Positions 2,888 to 55,882 of a stretch of 56,401 nucleotides of DNA are shown here, one piece after another; the first letter of the stretch is position 1; every line of letters begins with the position of its first letter. The translations under genes were made by a program, and so were the position numbers. The notes beneath the pieces are model-generated. The model was not told where the DNA came from. It made no database searches and worked only from the letters and a program-made list of their open reading frames with translations. Origin of the DNA: an uncultured archaeon (lineage in GTDB: Archaea; Asgardarchaeota; Thorarchaeia; Thorarchaeales; Thorarchaeaceae); assembly GCA_964458565.1 (NCBI GenBank), contig CAYWJO010000019.1, positions 1 to 56,401 on the forward strand, read 5' to 3'.

Positions 2888-4279
2888 TCAACCTCTAGGA
2901 GATTCTTCTTCTTCTTTATATGTTTCTTCAAGAGCTCTGTCCCACTCATCCTTACCCTCTTCTACGACTTCACCTTTCCTTGCACGCTCTTTGTTTCGAC
3001 GCGCTTTTTCTGCCTCTTTACGTAATCTTTCACGCTCTTTTTCACGTTTCGCCTTCTCTCTGCGTTGTTTTCTAGTGATAGCCTCTTCTTCATCCTGTTG
3101 TGAAAACCATCCAATTAGAGCAGCAATGAATGGAAAGAGGAGGACCACAGGTACAACAAATAGCAGTATCAACTCTGGTTGAGTAATTGCTACACTATTT
3201 TCTACACCAGGAGGTAGATTCAAGGCATCTAAGATGAATTGTGGGGAAAGTAAGAAGAATGAAACTGCTATGACAGCAAGGAATCTGAATGCAGATCCCA
3301 TTACTGTAGAACCGATGACATAGTAACTGGAAGGTGCCGCAGCTTTTGCTGTAAGCTCATCCCGAGCCGCAGGGTCAGAAGCAAGAAGCTCATCTACGAA
3401 GTGTTGGAGTCTTCTAACATCACTAACAGCATCAAGATTTTCAAGGGCATCTTTGTCACCGATGACTTTTCGTTCCATAGCCTCTCTAAGAAATGAGAAG
3501 GCAGTTGCTCCGGAGGATCTGCTCATACCTGTAAGACTGACTCGTTCACCACGTTCAATCGCATCTTGTTTTCTTGTTGCTTGTCTTAAAGCAAGAAGTT
3601 GCTTCTTGAGGGTTTCCTCCCGATCTTCAATGGGCTTCCCAACGGACGAACTATAGATCATCTGATATCCCACCTCAAGATAGGCAAAAGAAACCAGTGC
3701 TAGAATCTGGATCGAGCTTGTAAGGAAGGTTACGAAATCACTTGGATAAGCAGTGATGTGAAAATTACCAATATGACGATATGCGGCGACGATTAGGATT
3801 GATTGTATTGCTAAGAAGGAACCACCGACATATTTGTGCTCCATTCGATACAGAGATTGAAGAAACAATGCTATTCCAACACCAGCGCCTAAAAAGTAGA
3901 GAAACACAAACGTTGTATCCCATAAATCTGCAATGATTGCATTGAAATTCACTGCAAAATGTTGAAAGACCTCTTCTGCTGTTTCAAGGGGTCCACTCAC
4001 GCCGTAGGGTTGCATGTACCACATTTTCAGTATCAGAGTATTATAGAGACCTACAACTAATGTCTGGGGGGCACCTCCACCAACAATCAATGAGAATCCT
4101 GTCATCACAACTAGAGAAATGAAGAATACGAGGAATGATAACAAACGAAATACAGTGACAATAAAGACGTAAGGCGCATCCCAACTCCAGTAACCTTGTA
4201 ACGTGGAATATACGAGGTAGCACATGTAAGCGAATGCAAGAGTAGAGAGAATGCGGAGTATCCAGGTGACAACCTTCAA
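2888..4279 (-). CDS. Multi-pass membrane protein with charged C-terminal tail
   Basis: 463-aa ORF with about 7-8 hydrophobic segments; 4-nt overlap with the DUF58 gene. Confidence 0.75.
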   Translation of the reverse strand: MKVVTWILRILSTLAFAYMCYLVYSTLQGYWSWDAPYVFIVTVFRLLSFLVFFISLVVMTGFSLIVGGGAPQTLVVGLYNTLILKMWYMQPYGVSGPLETAEEVFQHFAVNFNAIIADLWDTTFVFLYFLGAGVGIALFLQSLYRMEHKYVGGSFLAIQSILIVAAYRHIGNFHITAYPSDFVTFLTSSIQILALVSFAYLEVGYQMIYSSSVGKPIEDREETLKKQLLALRQATRKQDAIERGERVSLTGMSRSSGATAFSFLREAMERKVIGDKDALENLDAVSDVRRLQHFVDELLASDPAARDELTAKAAAPSSYYVIGSTVMGSAFRFLAVIAVSFFLLSPQFILDALNLPPGVENSVAITQPELILLFVVPVVLLFPFIAALIGWFSQQDEEEAITRKQRREKAKREKERERLRKEAEKARRNKERARKGEVVEEGKDEWDRALEETYKEEEESPRG

Positions 4280-5598
4280 AACATAGCAACCCCCTTTCGC
4301 TTCGCTAACTCGTACTGCTTGATAATTGTTGGTAGAAAGTCTTCAGGTCCGACATTCACAACTTCTATTCCAAAACGGGATAGTGCTCGCGCAATCTTTG
4401 CTCTTCGTTCCCATAACTCCTCAGAAACCGCCTCAGCAAGAACTTTCTCAACAGGTCCAAATTGACCGACAGGTACCTCGAACCAGGGTCCGAATGGGCT
4501 GATGACCATAGCTTTGTGTCCATTTGCAACTATTGTCTTCATAGCATTAAGTAATGGTGCAGGACTTTCCTCTAAGTCAGTCAACCAGATAATCAGTGAG
4601 CGTTTTCTTGTCTGGAGGACAACATACTCTACAGCAGACTCATAATCACTCCAACCACGTGGTTCGGCCATTGATAATGCTTCTAAAACATCATACATAT
4701 GATTAGGACCACTTTTAGGTGGAACGTAACCATGGACGCGATCTGAAAAGACACATGTGCCAACTAAATCCTTTCTCTCAAGTCCAAGGTGTGTTAATAG
4801 AACTGCTGCACGAATAGCATATTCGAGTTTCGTATTCTCGGGATAACCATTTCCCATGGATCCACTAGCATCAACCATGCAGATGACTTGGATGTTTTTC
4901 TCCATCTCATACTGACGAATAATCAAGTCGCCTCTTTTTGCGCTACTTTTCCAATCGATAGATCTGAAGGAATCCCCTGGCACATAGGCTCTGAAACCTG
5001 TGAAATCGGTTCCCATTCCTACAACCTTAGTACGATGGGCACCAAACATCAAACCAAGTTGACGCTGCTTTCCAAGTGCTTCCATTCTACGTACATCTTT
5101 GTAAGTGGGATAGACAAGAATCTCAGTCGGTGCTTGCAGTGTTCGTATATAGTAATGAAGACCAAGTCTGTCACGAAGAATGACTTCTGTTGGTCCCAAA
5201 AAGTATCTCCCACGCATTCGCGCTTGGAGGATGTAGGAGAATGTAACACTGCTACCCGGTTCGATTCGGGATGCAATGAAATTCTCACCTATTGCTAGAA
5301 TCCAAGTTTCGGGATATTGATCATGACACTCAATAAAGTCGAAATGTCTGCGCGAGGTGTTACGCAGAGTTACCCGAACACGTAGGAAGTCTCCTGAGAA
5401 GACCTTCGCTTTGTCCACGGTTCTATGGACTTCAATACCAGAAATATTTGCCGTCATTGCGAAGAGAGGGAGAGATACAACTACCCCTACTAGTAGATAT
5501 ACACCCAGCATAAGGCAATAGAGATTGACAAAAGAAAATCCACTAGTGAGTAGGAGAATTCCAGAGAATACAACCACAAACCCTCTCTGTGTTATCAC
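4276..5598 (-). CDS. DUF58 / vWA-domain protein (MoxR partner)
   Basis: DFTGFRAYVPGDSFRSIDWKSSAK; VDASGSM MIDAS-like motif; TD motif. Confidence 0.92.
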   Translation of the reverse strand: MITQRGFVVVFSGILLLTSGFSFVNLYCLMLGVYLLVGVVVSLPLFAMTANISGIEVHRTVDKAKVFSGDFLRVRVTLRNTSRRHFDFIECHDQYPETWILAIGENFIASRIEPGSSVTFSYILQARMRGRYFLGPTEVILRDRLGLHYYIRTLQAPTEILVYPTYKDVRRMEALGKQRQLGLMFGAHRTKVVGMGTDFTGFRAYVPGDSFRSIDWKSSAKRGDLIIRQYEMEKNIQVICMVDASGSMGNGYPENTKLEYAIRAAVLLTHLGLERKDLVGTCVFSDRVHGYVPPKSGPNHMYDVLEALSMAEPRGWSDYESAVEYVVLQTRKRSLIIWLTDLEESPAPLLNAMKTIVANGHKAMVISPFGPWFEVPVGQFGPVEKVLAEAVSEELWERRAKIARALSRFGIEVVNVGPEDFLPTIIKQYELAKRKGVAMF

Positions 5599-5627
5599 TG
5601 ATATCTTCCTCTCTTTTTATATCATAA

Positions 5628-6617
5628 TTATTTAGGACAGTCCACTTCACCTAGAATTTTTGTGACGACGCGTTCAACTGTAAGTCCTTCGAGTTCAGCC
5701 TCTGGTTTCAAAATCAGCCTGTGATTTAATGCTTGAACTGTGAGTTTACGAACATCTTCTGGAATCACATAATCACGCCCGTGCATAGTAGCCCGAGACT
5801 TTGAAGCATTCATCAAAACAAGAGACGCTCGAGGCGAACCGCCAAGTAGAATCTGGGGATCGTTTCGTGTCCTGATGATAATATCGCGGATGTAGTGAAT
5901 GATATCCTCATCTAGAAACACACCTCTACAAGTCTGCTGCATTGCGACAAGTGTGTTTGGATCTGCTAGAACTCTGAGATCTTGAACCTCGCCGTGATGT
6001 TTCCTTCGTACAATTTCAGCCTCTTCACCACCAGTGGGATAATCAAGGATTAACCTGAACATAAATCGATCAAGCTGCGCCTCTGGAAGTGGATAGGTTC
6101 CTTCTTGTTCCACGGGATTTTGCGTCGCAATGATGAGAAATGGTTTGGGTAGTTTGCGGGTCACACCCTCAGTGGAAACTTGACGCTCCTCCATTACTTC
6201 GAGTAATGCACTTTGTGACTTCGGAGGACATCGATTAATCTCGTCAGCAAGAACCAGATTCGAAAAGACAGGGCCTTTCCTGAACCAGAATTCGCCGCTC
6301 TTTTGATTGAATACATTACTACCTAATAGGTCCGCAGGGAGTGTGTCAACAGTCAGCTGAATTCTTCTGAATTGACAGCCAAGAATGGACGCAAAGGTAC
6401 GAGCCATATAGGTCTTTGCAAGACCAGGAACTCCTTCTAGAACGACATGCCCATCTGAGAGAAAAGCAATCAAGACATTTGCTAGAATATCACCTTTTCC
6501 AACAATTACCCTGTTACATTCTCGAATAATTTCTGATGACAAATCATGTACTTCAGAGATTGTCATAGATGGTATGGGTCCTCCGATTTCATTCCCGGTG
6601 GTTGTATCTATTGTCAT
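5628..6617 (-). CDS. moxR: MoxR-family AAA+ ATPase
   Basis: GVPGLAKT Walker A, LADEINR Walker B, ATQNPVEQEGTYPLPEAQLDRF. Confidence 0.96.
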   Translation of the reverse strand: MTIDTTTGNEIGGPIPSMTISEVHDLSSEIIRECNRVIVGKGDILANVLIAFLSDGHVVLEGVPGLAKTYMARTFASILGCQFRRIQLTVDTLPADLLGSNVFNQKSGEFWFRKGPVFSNLVLADEINRCPPKSQSALLEVMEERQVSTEGVTRKLPKPFLIIATQNPVEQEGTYPLPEAQLDRFMFRLILDYPTGGEEAEIVRRKHHGEVQDLRVLADPNTLVAMQQTCRGVFLDEDIIHYIRDIIIRTRNDPQILLGGSPRASLVLMNASKSRATMHGRDYVIPEDVRKLTVQALNHRLILKPEAELEGLTVERVVTKILGEVDCPK

Positions 6618-6634
6618 GTTTTATTTTGCACCTC

Positions 6635-8038
6635 TTATTTTGGTCTCTCAACTAATTTTGATGTAATATTACGCATAAAGAAGAACAGCTCCATGAGCTC
6701 ATTCTCCTTGATTTTCATCCCAAGTTTTTTCGATATCTCTTCAATACGGCTTATAGTTTCGAAGAATTCGCTCTCCTTCAAGTTCGAATCTTTATACTGC
6801 ATCAGATTCCATACTTTTGTTGCATTATATTCCGACCACATGTTCTTTCTCATTAAATCGCGCCGTAATTTCCGATACAGCATTTTGACAACACGAGCAT
6901 AGTTACCTTCTGTTCTGTAATATTGCAGCCTCTCTGAGAAGTAGGTCTGCCCTTTTCGCAGGAAGACATCTGAAACACTCTTCACTTCTGGCTTTTTCAT
7001 ATCAGGCAGGTATTTTTTGATGCCAATGGCCGTTATTATTGGATAAACCGGTGCAAGAAGTGGCTGTGTTGTCATCCAGAGAGCACGCGACAGAAAAATC
7101 CCATAAAAGAATTCAACAGAATTTAATGGTATCTCTAGAAGGTTTTCAGTGAACAGAAGAGGAGCTGATTCCTCATATCCATCAGTAAGCCATCTTATTA
7201 CATTCGTTGCGAATCGCTCGTTATCACCCTTAAGGATCATATCGTTGTTGAAGATGCTTGGATCACTGATTGCAACAAGGCGTCCCTGAGAACGCGCAGC
7301 ACCCTCAACAGCTGGAATCTCAAGAGCTCCAGCAATTGGTAATCTTCCAGCCCACTCACCTTCGTCTGGCACAGGATTTGAATCACTAATATTGGTTTCA
7401 CACCATGATCGGATTGTTGTGAAAGCAATTCCGGAATATCCAAGCATACATCTCGGACTAAGAGTAGATGCCCAGTTTAAATGAAGCTCATCGACTCCCT
7501 GAGTCAGTGCACCCCCATCTACGGTGGGTCTGAAGTCTTTTATAACTGGAAGTTTGGGGCTTAAGGTGTATGAGTCCAAGTCAAGAAGAACTCCACCAGT
7601 GAATGAAAGAAATCCTTCAACACCTTCGGGGAAAGTAGTAGGAGCCCACGTGTTTAGTAACTGGTTCAGCCAGTAGAAGGATGAGTTTCCGGTACCAAAA
7701 TCATCTGCTATCAATACACTTCCTCCGGCTTTCAGGTGGTCAAATATCGTAAGAACTGCATCAAAGGAGAAATCTCGAACAGGGCCAAGAATAACCAGAA
7801 CTGCAGATCCATTGAATCGGTATAAAACACTCATTGAGGTTTGGATTGCATTGGTTTCATGACCTAGGTCTTCAGCCAGTATTCTGAAATCACTTGTGCC
7901 ATTCCAATTCGTATTATAGATAGAAAAATCGTAGTTGTAGGGTTCATTATAGTTGAATACAGTAGCACCAACAAGAAAGCCAACTGGCACCCATGATAGG
8001 ATGAACAAGATAATCTGTAAGGCTTCCTTCCAACCCAT
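6635..8038 (-). CDS. DUF4350-domain membrane-anchored protein
   Basis: FSIYNTNWNGTS, GGSVLIADDFG, GRLVAISDPSIFNNDM...N..F motifs; operon context. Confidence 0.8.
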   Translation of the reverse strand: MGWKEALQIILFILSWVPVGFLVGATVFNYNEPYNYDFSIYNTNWNGTSDFRILAEDLGHETNAIQTSMSVLYRFNGSAVLVILGPVRDFSFDAVLTIFDHLKAGGSVLIADDFGTGNSSFYWLNQLLNTWAPTTFPEGVEGFLSFTGGVLLDLDSYTLSPKLPVIKDFRPTVDGGALTQGVDELHLNWASTLSPRCMLGYSGIAFTTIRSWCETNISDSNPVPDEGEWAGRLPIAGALEIPAVEGAARSQGRLVAISDPSIFNNDMILKGDNERFATNVIRWLTDGYEESAPLLFTENLLEIPLNSVEFFYGIFLSRALWMTTQPLLAPVYPIITAIGIKKYLPDMKKPEVKSVSDVFLRKGQTYFSERLQYYRTEGNYARVVKMLYRKLRRDLMRKNMWSEYNATKVWNLMQYKDSNLKESEFFETISRIEEISKKLGMKIKENELMELFFFMRNITSKLVERPK

Positions 8039-45491: not shown

Positions 45492-45977
45492 CTAACCATA
45501 AGACACTGTACCATAGAAGATGCTCGGTAGCTTTCTCTTGGAAATCTTCCTGATTACATCCCGAACATCCTTTGGAGCTTTTAAGACGCCATACACCTTG
45601 ATACTATCAAGTGTCTTCTCAATTACCTCAGCATCGATGTCCTCATCTAGGATAAGCATCCCAACAGAATGAATACGGAGTCTCTTTCCTTCACCAAGTG
45701 CACCTTCGAGTGTAGACCTATTTAATTTGAACACACCAATCATTGAGATTTGCTTTATCCCTGATTCTTCATCTTCATCCGCATCTTGATCACTCGTTAT
45801 CTGTTCAATCCGAGTTCTGATATAATCATCATGAGAATCAAGAGCCTTCCTGATTGCAGAACGTATGAATTCAGCACGGCTGGGGTAAGTCCCTGATTCA
45901 ATGAGAATATCGATTCTTCCTAACTCCACAGGAGGGAGATTTATCGTTAGTTTTTCCATTGGAACATCTTCAAACAT
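45492..45977 (-). CDS. CopG/ribbon-helix-helix transcriptional regulator
   Basis: EKLTINLPPVELGRIDILIESGTYPSRAEFIRSAIR. Confidence 0.88.
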   Translation of the reverse strand: MFEDVPMEKLTINLPPVELGRIDILIESGTYPSRAEFIRSAIRKALDSHDDYIRTRIEQITSDQDADEDEESGIKQISMIGVFKLNRSTLEGALGEGKRLRIHSVGMLILDEDIDAEVIEKTLDSIKVYGVLKAPKDVRDVIRKISKRKLPSIFYGTVSYG

Positions 45978-46172: not shown

Positions 46173-46278
46173 GGGCCGGTAGTTCAGCCTGGTAGAATGC
46201 CTCCTTGGCACTTGTGTCGCACTTCGCGTGCATCCAAAGTGGAGGAGGTCACGAGTTCAAATCTCGTCCGGTCCACCA
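46173..46278 (+). tRNA. tRNA-Ala(GGC) with a 29-nt canonical 37/38 intron (46211-46239); CCA encoded
   Basis: GGGCCGG/CCGGTCC stem with G3:U70; CCTCC-TTGGCA^T-GGAGG; ACGAG-TTCAAAT-CTCGT; BHB helix TTGG/CCAA. Confidence 0.95.
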
Positions 46279-46288
46279 TACTCCTTTT

Positions 46289-46669
46289 TCACCTATCTGA
46301 TTCACTTAATGATACGATTTTCTCTTCACTTTGGGTTCTCATTTTGTATCCTACATAGAGCCCATACCATAAGAATGCAGTAACCGTCCAAAATAGACTC
46401 AAGATTAACAACAGGATGATGAAATTCGGTATGCCTATAGCAACAAGCGGCCAGTAGTATGTAACGAGCACAGTAATCAGTGTGACAATGGGTGTAAAGC
46501 ATACACCTACGTGGAAAGTCCCTGCCATTCTACATTCGAATGAACAAAATTGTTTTTCCCGATTGGAAATGCTAGACTGGAATGATCTTCCACACCACCT
46601 ACATCGAGATCGGTCATCACCATTCTTACCGTTTTTCTGAGCTTGATTAACTAATATTACCTCCCACAA
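46289..46669 (-). CDS. Small membrane protein with CxxC...FCSxxC zinc finger and two TMs (cassette 1)
   Basis: CRWCGRSF...FCSFECR followed by two hydrophobic helices. Confidence 0.7.
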   Translation of the reverse strand: MWEVILVNQAQKNGKNGDDRSRCRWCGRSFQSSISNREKQFCSFECRMAGTFHVGVCFTPIVTLITVLVTYYWPLVAIGIPNFIILLLILSLFWTVTAFLWYGLYVGYKMRTQSEEKIVSLSESDR

Positions 46670-46752
46670 GCTTTCACTAGCATATCAGAATCTAGATAGA
46701 AAAGGATTCTTCCCTTAAAGGAATACTTCTACACGCTCACTTAGCATTCCTA

Positions 46753-46794
46753 GCATGGAGGAGGTCGCGAGTTCGAATCACGCCCGGTCCACCA
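46753..46794 (+). repeat. tRNA-Ala 3'-half copy (att-like site 1)
   Basis: GCATGGAGGAGGTCGCGAGTTCGAATCACGCCCGGTCCACCA matches the intron-less tRNA-Ala 3' half with 4 substitutions. Confidence 0.92.
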
Positions 46795-46804
46795 TCACTT
46801 CTTC

Positions 46805-48208
46805 TCATACAGTCTTTTTCCTTAGGATTAGTACCATTACAAGAATACTAATGGCACCACCAGTAAAAATGATGATGATAAAAGTCGCATCGAATAATGG
46901 TAAATTAGACGTTGTAGTGATGGTGGTTGTTATTGGACTCGAGAGATTAGATGTTGTAGTGATGGTGGTTGTTATTGGACTTGAGGAATTTGTGGATATT
47001 ATAGGACTAGGATCATGATAAACTGCTAAATCGAATGAGGTATTGTACCTGTCAGTTCCGAGGGTGATAATATAACCAGGAATGGATGCATCGATCCAAA
47101 CGTCTGGATTACCCACAGATGTTTTCCACCAGTTAATCGGACCTAGACTTTGATTCCAAACTTTATTTCCATCTGAATCATAATTCAGTAGATGAACCTC
47201 ATTTCCATATGAGGACTCTTGCAGGAGGATGTAGAGTCCACCATTACATCCTGTAGCCACAGATGCACAAAACCAGTGTTTGTCCCCCAGATAGGAATCA
47301 GTAGCACTCCAGATATGATCACCAAGATTGTTATAGAAGTCAATATTGAATTCATTGTTCCAATCAGATATGCTGAGGGTATAGAAAGAACCATCAGGTC
47401 TAATGGTCATATAGCTTTTTGATCCAATCGACCACATCTGATTGCCATCAGAGTCCCATTTTATGATGAAATCTTCACTTAAAGTATAGATATATCCCAT
47501 TTCATCAACTTGTACATCAGAACCCCACTCGAAATCACCTGTTCCACTCCATATTTTACTCCATAAGACTAATCCAGATGGAGATATCTTCGTTAGCATT
47601 CCTCTTGATTCTTCAATGCAAGAACCACATGTGGTAGATTCCCCACCAATTATGTATATAGATCCTGAACTATCCGCTGCGATAATGTGGCCATATTCAT
47701 TATAATCTAAAGGTCCCCATATGACATTACCATCATAATCCCATTTCTGTAGACCATTCCTGCTATTTGTATAGATGAATACTCCATCAGTTGCCATTGA
47801 CCGAGCATCATCATTGATAATTGTTCGATTCCATTGTTGATTCAATTCAAGATCCCATTTTACAAGATGAAATGTTTCTTCTGTCACAACTGTTGAAGAT
47901 GATGTATCAAAATGTGCGCAGAATCCAAGTGTGAATATCGCATTATTTGAAGTTACCACCATTCCTTGCCACAAAAAGACTGATGAGTCATATCCATCCA
48001 GATGATACCTCCATGTAGTAGAATGTGCTGGTAGGAATATCTCCGATGTGTTTGTTAGTGTTGTAGTCAGATTTCGACGATTCGCAGTATTATCGGGTAT
48101 ATTGAGACCATATTTTGTAAGACGAAGATTGTTTCCATCGATCATATATATCCCTGAAAATAGAATAATCAGAATGATGAAACAGATCCCGAAATTCTTA
48201 ATATTCAT
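46805..48208 (-). CDS. Membrane-anchored beta-propeller-like surface protein (cassette 2)
   Basis: True start ATG 48208 (SD GGAG); N-terminal signal/TM; repeated K(W/Y)D..GN..W blades; Thr-rich stalk; C-terminal TM plus RKK. Confidence 0.8.
   Translation of the reverse strand: MNIKNFGICFIILIILFSGIYMIDGNNLRLTKYGLNIPDNTANRRNLTTTLTNTSEIFLPAHSTTWRYHLDGYDSSVFLWQGMVVTSNNAIFTLGFCAHFDTSSSTVVTEETFHLVKWDLELNQQWNRTIINDDARSMATDGVFIYTNSRNGLQKWDYDGNVIWGPLDYNEYGHIIAADSSGSIYIIGGESTTCGSCIEESRGMLTKISPSGLVLWSKIWSGTGDFEWGSDVQVDEMGYIYTLSEDFIIKWDSDGNQMWSIGSKSYMTIRPDGSFYTLSISDWNNEFNIDFYNNLGDHIWSATDSYLGDKHWFCASVATGCNGGLYILLQESSYGNEVHLLNYDSDGNKVWNQSLGPINWWKTSVGNPDVWIDASIPGYIITLGTDRYNTSFDLAVYHDPSPIISTNSSSPITTTITTTSNLSSPITTTITTTSNLPLFDATFIIIIFTGGAISILVMVLILRKKTV
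46904..46985. repeat. 42-bp tandem duplication encoding SSPITTTITTTSNL twice
   Basis: ATTAGA(C/T)GTTGTAGTGATGGTGGTTGTTATTGGACT(C/T)GAG at 46904 and 46946. Confidence 0.9.
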
Positions 48209-48294
48209 GAGAACTCCAAACCAACAAGAAAAGGTAGTATGCTTTCTAAAATAAGTTCTTGTGCTTGTCGGGACATATAAATCAACAGAACAGC

Positions 48295-48323
48295 CGCGTG
48301 TTCGAATCTCGCCCGGTCCACCA
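48295..48323 (+). repeat. tRNA-Ala 3'-end copy (att-like site 2)
   Basis: CGCGTGTTCGAATCTCGCCCGGTCCACCA: T arm, 3' acceptor strand and ACCA. Confidence 0.9.
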
Positions 48324-48329
48324 TTTATT

Positions 48330-48989
48330 CTAAGGATAACATAGATTCCAACCGGGTTGATACGTATGAACAAGTTCCATTATCTCAGTATATGAATCAT
48401 CTGAAAAGAAAGGCCTAGGACAGGTTGCTTCTCCATCGTATACTGCGAAGTGGATGTGTGCACCACCACCCACCTGCAGAAACTCACCGAGTGTATCCCC
48501 TTTAGCGACCCAATCACCCACTTCAATATCTAACATTGCAATTTGACGATCCACTACAGATGAATTTGTAGTCCACGGTTCAAATACGTATCCGATTTGT
48601 ATAGTCTCATTGAATCTGATTGAAACATGGATCATGTAAATGTTATCTGCTGGACCGGTGTCAGTCCATGATATCTCTTCCACAAGACCCGGTGCAGCAG
48701 CTTGTACCATAGACCTGTTCTTGAAAGCAAAATCAAGTCCATTATGTACAGCTCCCCAAGGGCAAGAGGTGCTTTCACTATATCCTCCATTCCAATTAAG
48801 GATGTCAGATCGGTTTGTGTAAATTACACCCATATAATTCAGATTGGTAGAATCGTAACGTCCTTCATTATCAAAGAGACCATCCTCTCCATCTGGATTA
48901 TTGGAGTCACCTCCATACTGCATATACAGTATGACAGCTGCAACAATTATAATCATGAAAATGAGTATGGCGCTGGTTTTTTTCTGCAT
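48330..48989 (-). CDS. M23-family metallopeptidase-like exported protein (cassette 3)
   Basis: N-terminal signal/TM; HNGLDF (HxxxD), VQAAAPG.V, V.VGD.V.KGD.LG, HIHF (HxH). Confidence 0.8.
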   Translation of the reverse strand: MQKKTSAILIFMIIIVAAVILYMQYGGDSNNPDGEDGLFDNEGRYDSTNLNYMGVIYTNRSDILNWNGGYSESTSCPWGAVHNGLDFAFKNRSMVQAAAPGLVEEISWTDTGPADNIYMIHVSIRFNETIQIGYVFEPWTTNSSVVDRQIAMLDIEVGDWVAKGDTLGEFLQVGGGAHIHFAVYDGEATCPRPFFSDDSYTEIMELVHTYQPGWNLCYP

Positions 48990-49170
48990 ACTCGTTTCGC
49001 ATTCAAAACATGCTCAAAAACTTGCTCATAATATAGTATGGAGAGAGTTGTTTGTAATATCACGCTTGGTTAATCACTTCTGGATACGATTATTCAGACC
49101 CGTAAACAAACTTTTAGCGAATCCAAGAGTACTAGAAATCATTTTAATCAGAGTTTAAGGATTATTCCGT

Positions 49171-49842
49171 TTGGTGCTTGGAATGAATTTACCCGTGAGA
49201 AAGATTCGAAGCATATTGGTTGGTTTGGCGTATTATAACATCTGCCTACTGCTCATTGCCGCCGATGTGTATTTCAATATTCTAACCCTGTTACTAATCG
49301 CATTGGACCAGCTTTTCTTTGTTGCAGACATTCTGATAAGACCGGTAACACCAAGAGAGAAAGCAGATCTCAGTACAAAACTCATAGGGCTTCTTTTCCT
49401 ATTACACCCATTTTTGTTAGCTCTGCTCTTCTACGAAAACTTGTATCTGACTGCAATTTTCCTCTCGTTTCTCAATGAGTCTATAGTCACATACATAGGA
49501 TTTGCGATTTACATGTTTGGAGTAGTAGTAACTCTAACAAGCAGAGTTCAACTTGGGAGATATGGTAGCGGTATAATATCTATTGAAGACAAGCACGAGT
49601 TATTATCAACAGGAATGTACCGCCATATCCGTAATCCACTCTATTCTGGCGCCTTGGTTGGACGAATTGGAATTGTATTAGTCTTTCGTGGTTACATTCT
49701 TGGATTCTTGATGTTCTTGACCTATTTCTTGATTTTCAGAAAACGAATAGAAATAGAAGAGGAAATGCTGGAATCGGAATTTGGTGAGGAATATCTATCT
49801 TACAAGGAACGTACAAAGCGACTTATTCCATATGTCTGGTGA
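49171..49842 (+). CDS. Isoprenylcysteine carboxyl methyltransferase (ICMT/PEMT) family protein
   Basis: H.L...G.YR.IRNPLY, EE..L...FGEEY..YK.RTKRLIP. Confidence 0.9.
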   Translation: MVLGMNLPVRKIRSILVGLAYYNICLLLIAADVYFNILTLLLIALDQLFFVADILIRPVTPREKADLSTKLIGLLFLLHPFLLALLFYENLYLTAIFLSFLNESIVTYIGFAIYMFGVVVTLTSRVQLGRYGSGIISIEDKHELLSTGMYRHIRNPLYSGALVGRIGIVLVFRGYILGFLMFLTYFLIFRKRIEIEEEMLESEFGEEYLSYKERTKRLIPYVW

Positions 49843-54766: not shown

Positions 54767-55699
54767 TTAATTTCCTGATAAGATTCTCATGCCACAGTTC
54801 CTGCAGAATTGATCTCCTACTTCATTCTCAGCTCTGCATTGTTTACATCGGATCTTTTTTGTTGACCGGGATTCATCTGGTGGCGTAATTTCGTGGCGTA
54901 CCTCTGTAATGTAATAGTCTCCATCCATCTTGGAGCCAACACCCTTGATTCTAATGTGTGCGTGGGGTTTCAATACATCCGAGTAAAGTGTGCCCACAGA
55001 CGTATAATGAACTACTTTGATAGTTTGATCCTCAGACACCTCAACTATTGCTATTGGTACAAGAAATCTATGTGATTCATCCTTAAGGTGAGCCTCCAGT
55101 AACTCAGCAACTTCAACTTGAGTTTCTTCATTCTCAGTTAATGCGGACCACCTAAACCCTATTCGAACTCTTGAAGTTGTGTCGGGCTCACTTATAGCAG
55201 GTTCAAGCAATTCTGAGTCCTCAGTAGCTGAAACCTCCTGTGTCCAAGCCTCAAGAAAGACGATATAACGTGAAGGGTCATTTACAACTTCAGCATCTTG
55301 GTCTAATGATGTAGCGGAGATTATTTCTTCAGTGTCGTCTATGGCAATGACCAAATCACCAATCAACACTGCGCCAGATGTTACTTTGAATGTGAATCCT
55401 CTAGAGTCCATAGTTATAGTATCATCAACTATTCTGATAGAGGGTGTTTCTTTCTGAGCTGAGAGGGCTTTACCTACTTTTTCTTGCCCATCGGTTCTAA
55501 TTTCGACTTCTTCAGACAAGTCACCGTCAGTCATGACTCTCCCTTGCTGGTGTAAAACGCCACTGTACGATTCCTCACTTCGAGCGTATAAGCGGTCTCG
55601 TGACCCAACAACGATGAGTCTACCGCATTTTGGACATGACTTGGTATCTGTTTCAATTTCTACTCCACATCCAGGACATCTCACTAATTTAACCTCCAA
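54767..55699 (-). CDS. Zinc-ribbon protein enclosing DUF6519-like and phage late-control-D-like segments
   Basis: CPGC/CPKC at the N-terminus, CKQC/CRNC at the C-terminus; internal YSGVLHQQGRV..D.D..E, Y.VFLEAW..EV...ED..L.E.A...PDTT.R and I.I.GVG....G.YYIT.VRH.I. Confidence 0.7.
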   Translation of the reverse strand: MEVKLVRCPGCGVEIETDTKSCPKCGRLIVVGSRDRLYARSEESYSGVLHQQGRVMTDGDLSEEVEIRTDGQEKVGKALSAQKETPSIRIVDDTITMDSRGFTFKVTSGAVLIGDLVIAIDDTEEIISATSLDQDAEVVNDPSRYIVFLEAWTQEVSATEDSELLEPAISEPDTTSRVRIGFRWSALTENEETQVEVAELLEAHLKDESHRFLVPIAIVEVSEDQTIKVVHYTSVGTLYSDVLKPHAHIRIKGVGSKMDGDYYITEVRHEITPPDESRSTKKIRCKQCRAENEVGDQFCRNCGMRILSGN

Positions 55700-55786: not shown

Positions 55787-55882
55787 GCCGAGGTAGATCA
55801 GCCAGGGAGATCGCGCGGCTGAAGTTCCATAATGGATGCAGAAACCGCGTTGTCGGGTGTTCAAATCACCCCCTCGGCACCA
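55787..55882 (+). tRNA. tRNA-Phe(GAA) with a 19-nt 37/38 intron (55825-55843); CCA encoded
   Basis: GCCGAGG/CCTCGGC; CGCGG-CTGAAG^A-CCGCG; GGGTG-TTCAAAT-CACCC; upstream TTTATAAA box. Confidence 0.95.

Follow-up and report, generated by a model that had tools for sequence, protein, structure and literature searches.

The stretch of DNA analysed here (the window), 56,401 nucleotides long and corresponding to contig C19 (CAYWJO010000019.1) of a 3.73 Mb archaeal bin in 93 contigs, carries three short gene units lined up behind a tRNA-Ala(GGC) gene and delimited by partial copies of the 3' end of that gene. We consider it probable that this locus represents, with three units, a type of "tRNA-anchored cassette array" that occurs throughout the Thorarchaeota, in which small integrase-less modules have been inserted serially, and we favour such modules over a pure decay of larger elements. 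Along the plus strand, the array consists of the tRNA, unit 1, fragment 1 (F1), unit 2, fragment 2 (F2), unit 3 and fragment 3 (F3). The anchoring tRNA gene (46173-46278, plus strand) has an encoded CCA and was detected by ARAGORN with introns allowed; an Rfam scan of the window returned one tRNA, at 46173-46275 (RF00005, 54.5 bits). Exon 1 (46173-46210) and exon 2 (46240-46278) are separated by a 29-nt intron (46211-46239) at the canonical 37/38 site (after position 38 according to ARAGORN), and all pairs of the T arm (ACGAG/CTCGT) are formed.

F1 (46753/46756-46794, plus strand) is intron-less and extends from the anticodon-loop 'GCA' to the CCA, while F2 (48295-48323, plus strand) extends from the T-stem to the CCA. 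An alignment of both with the window tRNA-Ala revealed a common invariant 3' core, and a profile of the relatives' fragments recovered them with E = 4e-16 and 8.5e-12, respectively. A reversed-sequence control for the tRNA 3' pattern gave 0 matches genome-wide. F3 (~49034-49081, plus strand) is a decayed long-type copy at the distal end of the array, recognised by local alignment to F1 and by its position in relatives. The alignment scored 34, compared with 17.3 ± 3.4 for the background, and 4 of 593 windows reached that score; F3 retains a CACGC-like 3' strand of the T-stem together with the TCACTTCT trailer, and at the equivalent position, after the M23 unit described below, the relatives L083, L088 and G018 have an intact fragment. 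The profile search did not pick up F3 and found no fragment further downstream than 49.1 kb in the window.

The three cassette genes lie on the minus strand, with gaps of 10, 10 and 6 nt between the CCA and the stop codon for genes 1, 2 and 3, and units 1 and 2 measure 516 bp and 1529 bp. The tRNA, F1, F2, this gene arrangement and the three types of cargo (Zn-finger membrane protein, beta-propeller, M23 peptidase) had all been described in an earlier sequence-only reading of the window, and they were borne out by the tRNA predictions, the alignment and profile, the translations, an Atlas lead and Pfam. The gene of cassette 1 (46289-46669, minus strand, 126 aa), read from its translation, encodes an N-terminal zinc ribbon (CxxC...CxxxC) followed by hydrophobic helices, for which Pfam gave just a weak PLATZ match. 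Its homologues, at 25-32% identity, reside in a 393-bp fragment-bounded unit (G020:C57) and in a multi-gene unit (G005:C12). Cassette 2 (46805-48208, minus strand, 467 aa by translation) encodes a propeller-like surface protein in which a signal/anchor, W/D/G repeats, a Thr-rich tandem linker and a C-terminal anchor are recognisable; its nearest Atlas clusters, taken as a lead only, are PQQ/SBBP propeller surface proteins. Neither Pfam nor PADLOC gave a match for this orphan protein, whose closest homologue is 27% identical and which has no close relative anywhere. The product of the cassette 3 gene (48330-48989, minus strand, 219 aa) is an M23 peptidase with an N-terminal anchor (Pfam PF01551, 1.1e-7). 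The unit containing it (48303-49024) shares 77-80% DNA identity with fragment-bracketed units in four other Thorarchaeota assemblies; the homology ends sharply at 49024, and the intact long fragment of the relatives begins ~10 nt beyond. These sequence limits identify the window's M23 unit as a discrete module. An M23 unit with 82% protein identity also lies between tRNA-Ala fragments on a 2.3 kb contig of an uncultured Pirellulales bin (L085, CAYSHS010000530.1), which is probably a mis-binned Thorarchaeota contig.

The tRNA-Ala 3' core was present in 86 of 86 family genomes, many of which hold far more core copies than three real tRNA-Ala genes explain. We took a census of 14 tRNA-Ala arrays in 12 genomes of six genera, with a cut-off for open reading frames (ORFs) of at least 60 aa. 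It comprised 67 units with a median length of 1092 bp (≤ 2 kb in 56 of them); exactly one ORF was present in 49, which were mostly 80-95% coding. The typical unit is mainly single-gene and 0.3-3 kb in size, with the two tRNA-proximal units of G018 and G003 reaching 10-12 kb, again without an integrase. Contig G018:C140 carries 13 fragments by the strict pattern and up to 18 by the profile across 34 kb, G046:C172 has the core seven times in 5 kb (the tRNA and six fragments), and G047:C9 six times in 7 kb (the tRNA and five fragments). Relatives compared at tRNA-Ala, as the sequence-only reading had proposed, differ in gene content and have much longer arrays than the window. In addition, the tRNA-Ala(CGC) gene of G047:C29 (L079, reverse-complement 5167-6727) is followed 1.5 kb downstream by an isoacceptor-specific fragment of the attcagaagg anticodon-stem type, indicating that the phenomenon is wider than the GGC gene.

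The cargo of the relatives' arrays includes defence-like genes, namely HEPN AbiV, two Schlafen/AlbA_2 proteins, an HNH nuclease, a NucS-like nuclease, a cytidine deaminase, a DrmC-like phospholipase D (PLD), a GajB-like UvrD helicase, HerA, STAND-TPR, PIN-domain proteins and a DNA methylase. Metabolic and envelope functions are represented by amidohydrolases, an old yellow enzyme (OYE) reductase, a beta-lactamase-fold protein, NosD-like beta-helix proteins and the M23 peptidase. In this respect the arrays of the relatives resemble defence-island-like stores of HerA, GajB-like, DrmC-like, AbiV, Schlafen and deaminase genes. A conserved gene pair directly follows the tRNA in G018 (L021, 10014-15287) and G003 (L024, 3189-8456), encoding a 904-aa protein and an 852-aa HerA/TraG-like ATPase. 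No Pfam, PADLOC or PDB relative of the 904-aa protein was found, and the two genes may constitute a new kind of HerA-type defence pair.

Many of the relatives' arrays begin at contig ends, which shows that assemblers break at these repeats. This feature could also point to an artefact, either mis-assembly at a repeated tRNA sequence or random similarity, and we rate the chance of that as negligible. The window array is internal to its contig and has unique flanks, the same architecture recurs in independent assemblies of different studies within contigs of 73-178 kb, and reversed-pattern controls produced 0-1 matches.

One indication that the units recombine as units comes from the T-stems of the fragments. 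The T-stem of F1 is chimeric (GCGAG...CACGC, one mismatch), the T-stem of F2 reads GCGTG...CTCGC, and each of the two mismatched stems pairs perfectly with the partner strand of the other. By this comparison, the two chimeras are the reciprocal product of a single T-loop crossover between a GCGAG/CTCGC site and a GCGTG/CACGC site, and unit 2 accordingly still holds both junctions of its own insertion. In G003:C21 a 1060-bp unit, and in G046:C172 a 635-bp unit, is bracketed by the same reciprocal footprint. When fragments were shuffled across arrays, 0.21 reciprocal neighbour pairs were expected against the three observed (P = 0.0006). All three detectable crossovers fall within the 9-nt identical T-loop stretch and none in the longer 14-nt acceptor stretch.

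Comparison of related arrays revealed gain and loss with unit precision, since arrays sharing 88-95% identity differ from one another in the presence of entire units. A 550-bp single-gene unit lies between two fragments in L083 and G018 and is absent from L088, where one fragment combines the left arm of the first L083 fragment with the right flank of the second. Likewise, a 514-bp unit of G018 is missing in L193, and one slot with the same neighbours is occupied by M23 in L083 and by a GNAT gene in G003. Insertions occur at internal fragments as well.

Several observations weigh against serial insertion of mobile modules. With shuffling restricted to within arrays, the adjacency of reciprocal pairs was not significant (P = 0.16), because the arrays are small. 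Decay within arrays is real: a fragment in G018 is followed by a 110-nt stump of a large gene, and F3 is degenerate. The genus of the window has no second genome, so the window units have never been seen to move, and none of the 80 metagenome loci with the core proved to be a circular contig. Tyrosine recombinases do occur in 29 of the 86 family genomes. Finally, nearly all genomes are bins, which are prone to lose plasmids, viruses and repeat-rich contigs, and the absence of an integrase is for this reason weak evidence.

According to the classical explanation by decay, the units are the remains of larger integrative plasmids or proviruses that brought their own tyrosine integrase and were reduced to one selected gene. 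We hold this to be unlikely. It would account for the stumps and degenerate fragments, which show ongoing deletion, for the sporadic tyrosine integrases of 390-430 aa in the family and for the 10-12 kb size of the two tRNA-proximal units of G018 and G003. The 5' limits of the fragments at the anticodon loop and the T loop would also fit, as these are said to be the classical crossover sublocations of tyrosine integrases, a generalisation reportedly made by Williams in 2002. However, decay would hardly be expected to leave exactly one ORF in 49 units of mostly coding DNA or to preserve both products of one crossover around three single-gene units, and the 10-12 kb units are as integrase-free as the small ones.

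The search for a recombinase also disfavours decay. As the sequence-only reading had stated, there is no recombinase in the window: PF00589 (tyrosine), PF16795 (SSV-type) and PF00239 (serine) had no match on the contig. PF00589 matched no array contig in the 86 family genomes searched, PF00239 gave none on array contigs among the matches listed, and PF16795 had no match in the five genomes searched. A tblastn search with 17 family integrases against the 14 arrays detected no remnant or integrase pseudogene (nothing at E < 0.03), and tblastn found neither an integrase nor a remnant on 80 metagenome contigs with the core. Roughly one in three of these contigs is Thorarchaeota-like, and several contain arrays. 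Among 16 integrase loci retrieved from the family, none is flanked by tRNA repeats and only one (L118) lies beside a tRNA, tRNA-Ser. Thus the larger integrase-bearing elements that might have been the parents of the units were looked for at these sites, and none was found in the 86 family genomes or the 80 metagenome contigs. When IMG/VR was scanned for the tRNA-Ala core, both exactly and with degenerate positions, unrelated phage tRNA genes were all that came up.

PF00589 is present in 29/86 family genomes (8 of the 23 high-quality ones) and serine recombinases in 23/86. The array-rich genomes G005, G047 and G048 have neither type, and G049 and G020 lack PF00589 and each have a serine recombinase on another contig. 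The suggestion of a stand-alone tyrosine recombinase elsewhere in the genome was answered in part, since the window genome has a sole PF00589 gene, on contig C53. We rejected it as part of a tRNA-flanked element, as it has no flanking repeats and no tRNA nearby. With PF00589 in just 29 of the 86 genomes, a conserved XerA-type dimer-resolution enzyme seems to be missing or unrecognisable in the family.

The form of the repeat itself provides further information. The fragment core from the T loop to the CCA hardly varies, ~60% of copies extend further back to the anticodon loop, and the 3' side carries a pyrimidine-rich trailer of ~9 nt. Nothing is conserved past the trailer, so that arm-type sites are absent. 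The 5' limits of the fragments are bimodal, at tRNA positions 32-40 and 49-56. In genus g6 (G005, G020), the tRNA-Ala(GGC) has an additional intron at 53/54, and all g6 fragments start exactly at the 23-nt last exon; where the sole intron is at 37/38, most fragments start there. Both spliced-type and intron-tail-bearing fragment copies occur. By these limits, the repeat corresponds to the last exon of the tRNA. It contains a 5-7-5 T-arm palindrome, of which the short-type fragments lack the 5' strand.

Such a repeat could be used without any dedicated recombinase. In this alternative, host homologous recombination employs the last exons of stable RNAs as portable homology: they would be the only stretches nearly identical between diverged Thorarchaeota, and circles excised between repeats would be re-integrated by a single crossover. 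We regard this as a rather unlikely explanation of the arrays, albeit one that several findings suit. Wherever the introns lie, the fragments correspond to the last exon, at whose limit homology between alleles would be expected to stop; no conserved arm sites exist beyond the tRNA part; most genomes have no site-specific recombinase; and co-oriented 3' copies follow other tRNA genes too. In the genome of the window, one such copy (C25, ~1576-1598) lies 1.9 kb downstream of tRNA-Lys(CTT) (3442-3518) and another (C45, 40-73) 0.9 kb downstream of tRNA-Ser(TGA) (956-1092), with the same layout as at tRNA-Ala, so that similar arrangements at other tRNAs, which the sequence-only reading had asked about, do exist. 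A quick search for copies of the 16S tail, made with a guessed 16S 3' end, yielded matches at chance level only. On the other hand, host recombination leaves the first linkage of a gene to a tRNA fragment unexplained, and it does not predict that three crossovers should all choose the 9-nt T-loop stretch over the longer acceptor stretch or that 5' limits should cluster at two loops instead of spreading. Repeats of 23 nt are moreover very short for RadA-type recombination.

Returning to serial insertion of small modules, we infer the following course. A unit would be a small circular DNA, as a rule with a single gene, and its copy of the tRNA-Ala last exon would span the anticodon loop or T loop to the CCA plus the ~9 nt pyrimidine trailer. 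Its insertion would be a conservative reciprocal crossover of this copy with either the tRNA gene already in place or an earlier fragment, which would regenerate an intact tRNA and displace the old 3' end distally. Repeated insertion would have stacked the M23 gene first, the propeller gene second and the zinc-ribbon gene last, and recombination between any two fragments could lose or move units again. The order of events in the window was deduced from alleles and trailers. Entry of the M23 unit would have displaced F3, which in its 3' strand and TCACTTCT trailer resembles what F1 now carries; unit 2 would have entered next by the T-loop crossover, and unit 1 last, when a crossover in the anticodon loop would also have introduced the intron-bearing 3' half of today's tRNA. 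The enzyme would be encoded outside the array and could be either a trans-acting recombinase recognising the T-arm/anticodon-arm core or the host recombination machinery acting on repeats of 23-45 nt, and we treat these two options as equally live.

The intron positions raise a related point. The extra-intron tRNA-Ala(GGC) genes of g6 (L022, G020:C57, ~2519-2620; L030, G005:C12, ~6674-6830) carry the additional intron at the T-stem/T-loop junction, and the G005 gene has three introns. The 3' end of the 53/54 intron (GGAGCGCGAA) resembles the exon just before it (GGTCGCGAG). This intron looks like the scar of an insertion with a deleted interior, and such scars could give rise to non-canonical tRNA introns. 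That fragment limits coincide with tRNA intron positions bears on the old idea of Randau and Soll, cited in PMC3218864, of a mutual influence between tRNA introns and integrating elements.

The sequence-only reading had interpreted the locus as an integron-like, polarised gene-capture system. Its layout, turnover and modular units stand, and the arrays share with integrons long series of ~0.5-1.5 kb single-ORF units, a short repeated recombination site between them, fast turnover of content between relatives and defence genes among the relatives' cargo. The adjacent integrase, the common promoter and the polarity do not. Upstream of the window tRNA there are RHH_8, leucine-rich repeat (LRR), PUA and DEAD helicase genes rather than IntI, and the search revealed no attC-like site beyond the tRNA T arm and no common promoter. 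Among the single-ORF units of the relatives, 30 are co-oriented with the tRNA and 19 convergent, which shows that the uniform convergence of the window, with all genes antisense to the tRNA, is not a rule and departs from the co-oriented promoterless cassettes of integrons. The repeat here is also a piece of a functional tRNA gene, unlike in integrons.

A true integron analogue, with a dedicated and conserved novel recombinase, capture of genes at one fixed site by the tRNA, and polarised expression driven from a promoter, is accordingly improbable in our view. Unit size and the single gene per unit would agree with it, as would the T arm as a natural 5-7-5 inverted-repeat core and the common orientation and tight spacing of the three window genes. 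Against these stand the mixed orientation in relatives, the use of internal fragments as insertion sites and the absence of any conserved gene beside the arrays, whose upstream flanks differ among genomes (RHH_8, DUF6602, others). The sole gene family recurring in six arrays encodes a small four-helix membrane protein; we considered it as a recombination factor and rejected it, as it is a membrane protein rather than an enzyme.

Genomic islands in tRNA and tmRNA genes are defined by Islander/TIGER through the integrase gene inside them (PMC4383910). The arrays have the same intact tRNA at one end and displaced co-oriented 3' fragments at the other ends, the newest insertion beside the tRNA, fragment limits at the anticodon loop or T loop and a crossover in the loop. 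They differ in that islands are multi-kb and contain an integrase, whereas none of the ~67 units of 0.3-3 kb does. Another parallel is offered by the cis-mobilizable elements (CIMEs) of streptococcal integrative and conjugative elements (ICEs), which, in accounts attributed to Pavlovic (2004) and Bellanger (2011), are said to be integrase-less, att-flanked modules moved in trans, by accretion and mobilisation, through the integrase of a related element. The array units are likewise flanked by att-like sites without recombination genes of their own, are stacked at a tRNA-type site and may be moved in trans. In contrast, any one site holds few CIMEs, and these can be recognised as derived from co-resident ICEs, while here up to ~18 units are stacked in archaeal hosts and no parent element was found; an autonomous relative at the same att site was absent from the 16 integrase loci and 80 metagenome contigs, within the limits set by the incompleteness of metagenome-assembled genomes (MAGs). 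Tandems of phages and ICEs are a related case of stacking (PMC13651849).

The tycheposons of Prochlorococcus are tRNA-adjacent variable islands in which partial tRNAs separate insertions and degenerated remnants are scattered (10.1101/2020.12.28.424599). Partial tRNAs between successive insertions and degenerate remnants are shared with the arrays, but tycheposons carry integrase and replication modules and fragmented integrase remnants; neither was found here, and Pfam scans of 37 array and array-flank ORFs of relatives detected no hallmark integrase plus replication module. In hyperthermophilic archaea, SSV-type "suicidal" integrases insert elements at tRNA 3' ends, where they become fixed (PMC7253208). 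The arrays share with these elements the archaeal host and insertion at the 3' part of a tRNA with subsequent fixation. In the SSV-type case, however, the att site lies inside the integrase gene and int(N)/int(C) halves flank the element. We rejected split integrases of this type, as PF16795 gave nothing in the five genomes searched and the ORFs that run antisense through fragments are amidohydrolases.

These amidohydrolase genes, found in five genomes (L030, 547-2019 and 5255-6892; L073, 159-1052; L075, 1613-3082; L080, 6231-7658), run antisense into the tRNA or a fragment, and their last residues (..WWTGRDS) are encoded by the complement of the acceptor/T arm. The gene marks the distal end of several arrays and may be the ancestral convergent neighbour of tRNA-Ala(GGC).

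The literature searched contained no description of such arrays, which look like an unreported cassette-style collection of accessory genes. In a 2024 survey of Asgard archaea, the non-viral integrated elements listed are limited to aloposons and a small number from Atabeyarchaeia (PMC11529989). How Asgard archaea, the closest known relatives of eukaryotes, acquire genes is poorly understood; serial insertion of single genes as minimal modules behind a tRNA would, if true, represent a major and previously undescribed route of gene flux in Thorarchaeota. As no known recombinase was found, it would imply either a new recombinase family or efficient recombination on 23-45 nt repeats. A bolder version, which we put forward tentatively and consider less likely than not, is a genome-wide cassette economy in Thorarchaeota, in which terminal exons of stable RNA genes (tRNA-Ala, tRNA-Lys, tRNA-Ser) serve as portable recombination sites and single defence, envelope or metabolism genes are excised, exchanged and stacked by a novel-family recombinase or by host machinery. 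It would provide the closest prokaryotic relatives of eukaryotes with a functional counterpart of integrons and might be linked to the origin of non-canonical tRNA introns.

Both flanks of the window array lie outside it. Upstream is an RHH_8 family regulator (45492-45977, minus strand; Pfam PF17723, 2.9e-30), with the LRR gene also on this side of the tRNA and, further upstream, core-type genes for a PUA-domain protein, a DEAD helicase and SepF. Homologues of the PUA-domain gene are found upstream of the tRNA in G003 and G020, and a helicase-sized ORF adjoins in G020. Downstream, a membrane methyltransferase of the ICMT/PEMT type is encoded at 49171-49842 (plus strand; Pfam PF04191, PF04140). 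Further along the window, a gene for a 310-aa protein with zinc ribbons at both ends (54767-55699, minus strand) adjoins tRNA-Phe (55787-55882). Pfam recognised zinc-ribbon domains only in this protein, and the C-terminal regions of many family tyrosine integrases weakly match both of its ribbons (tblastn, best E = 0.002).

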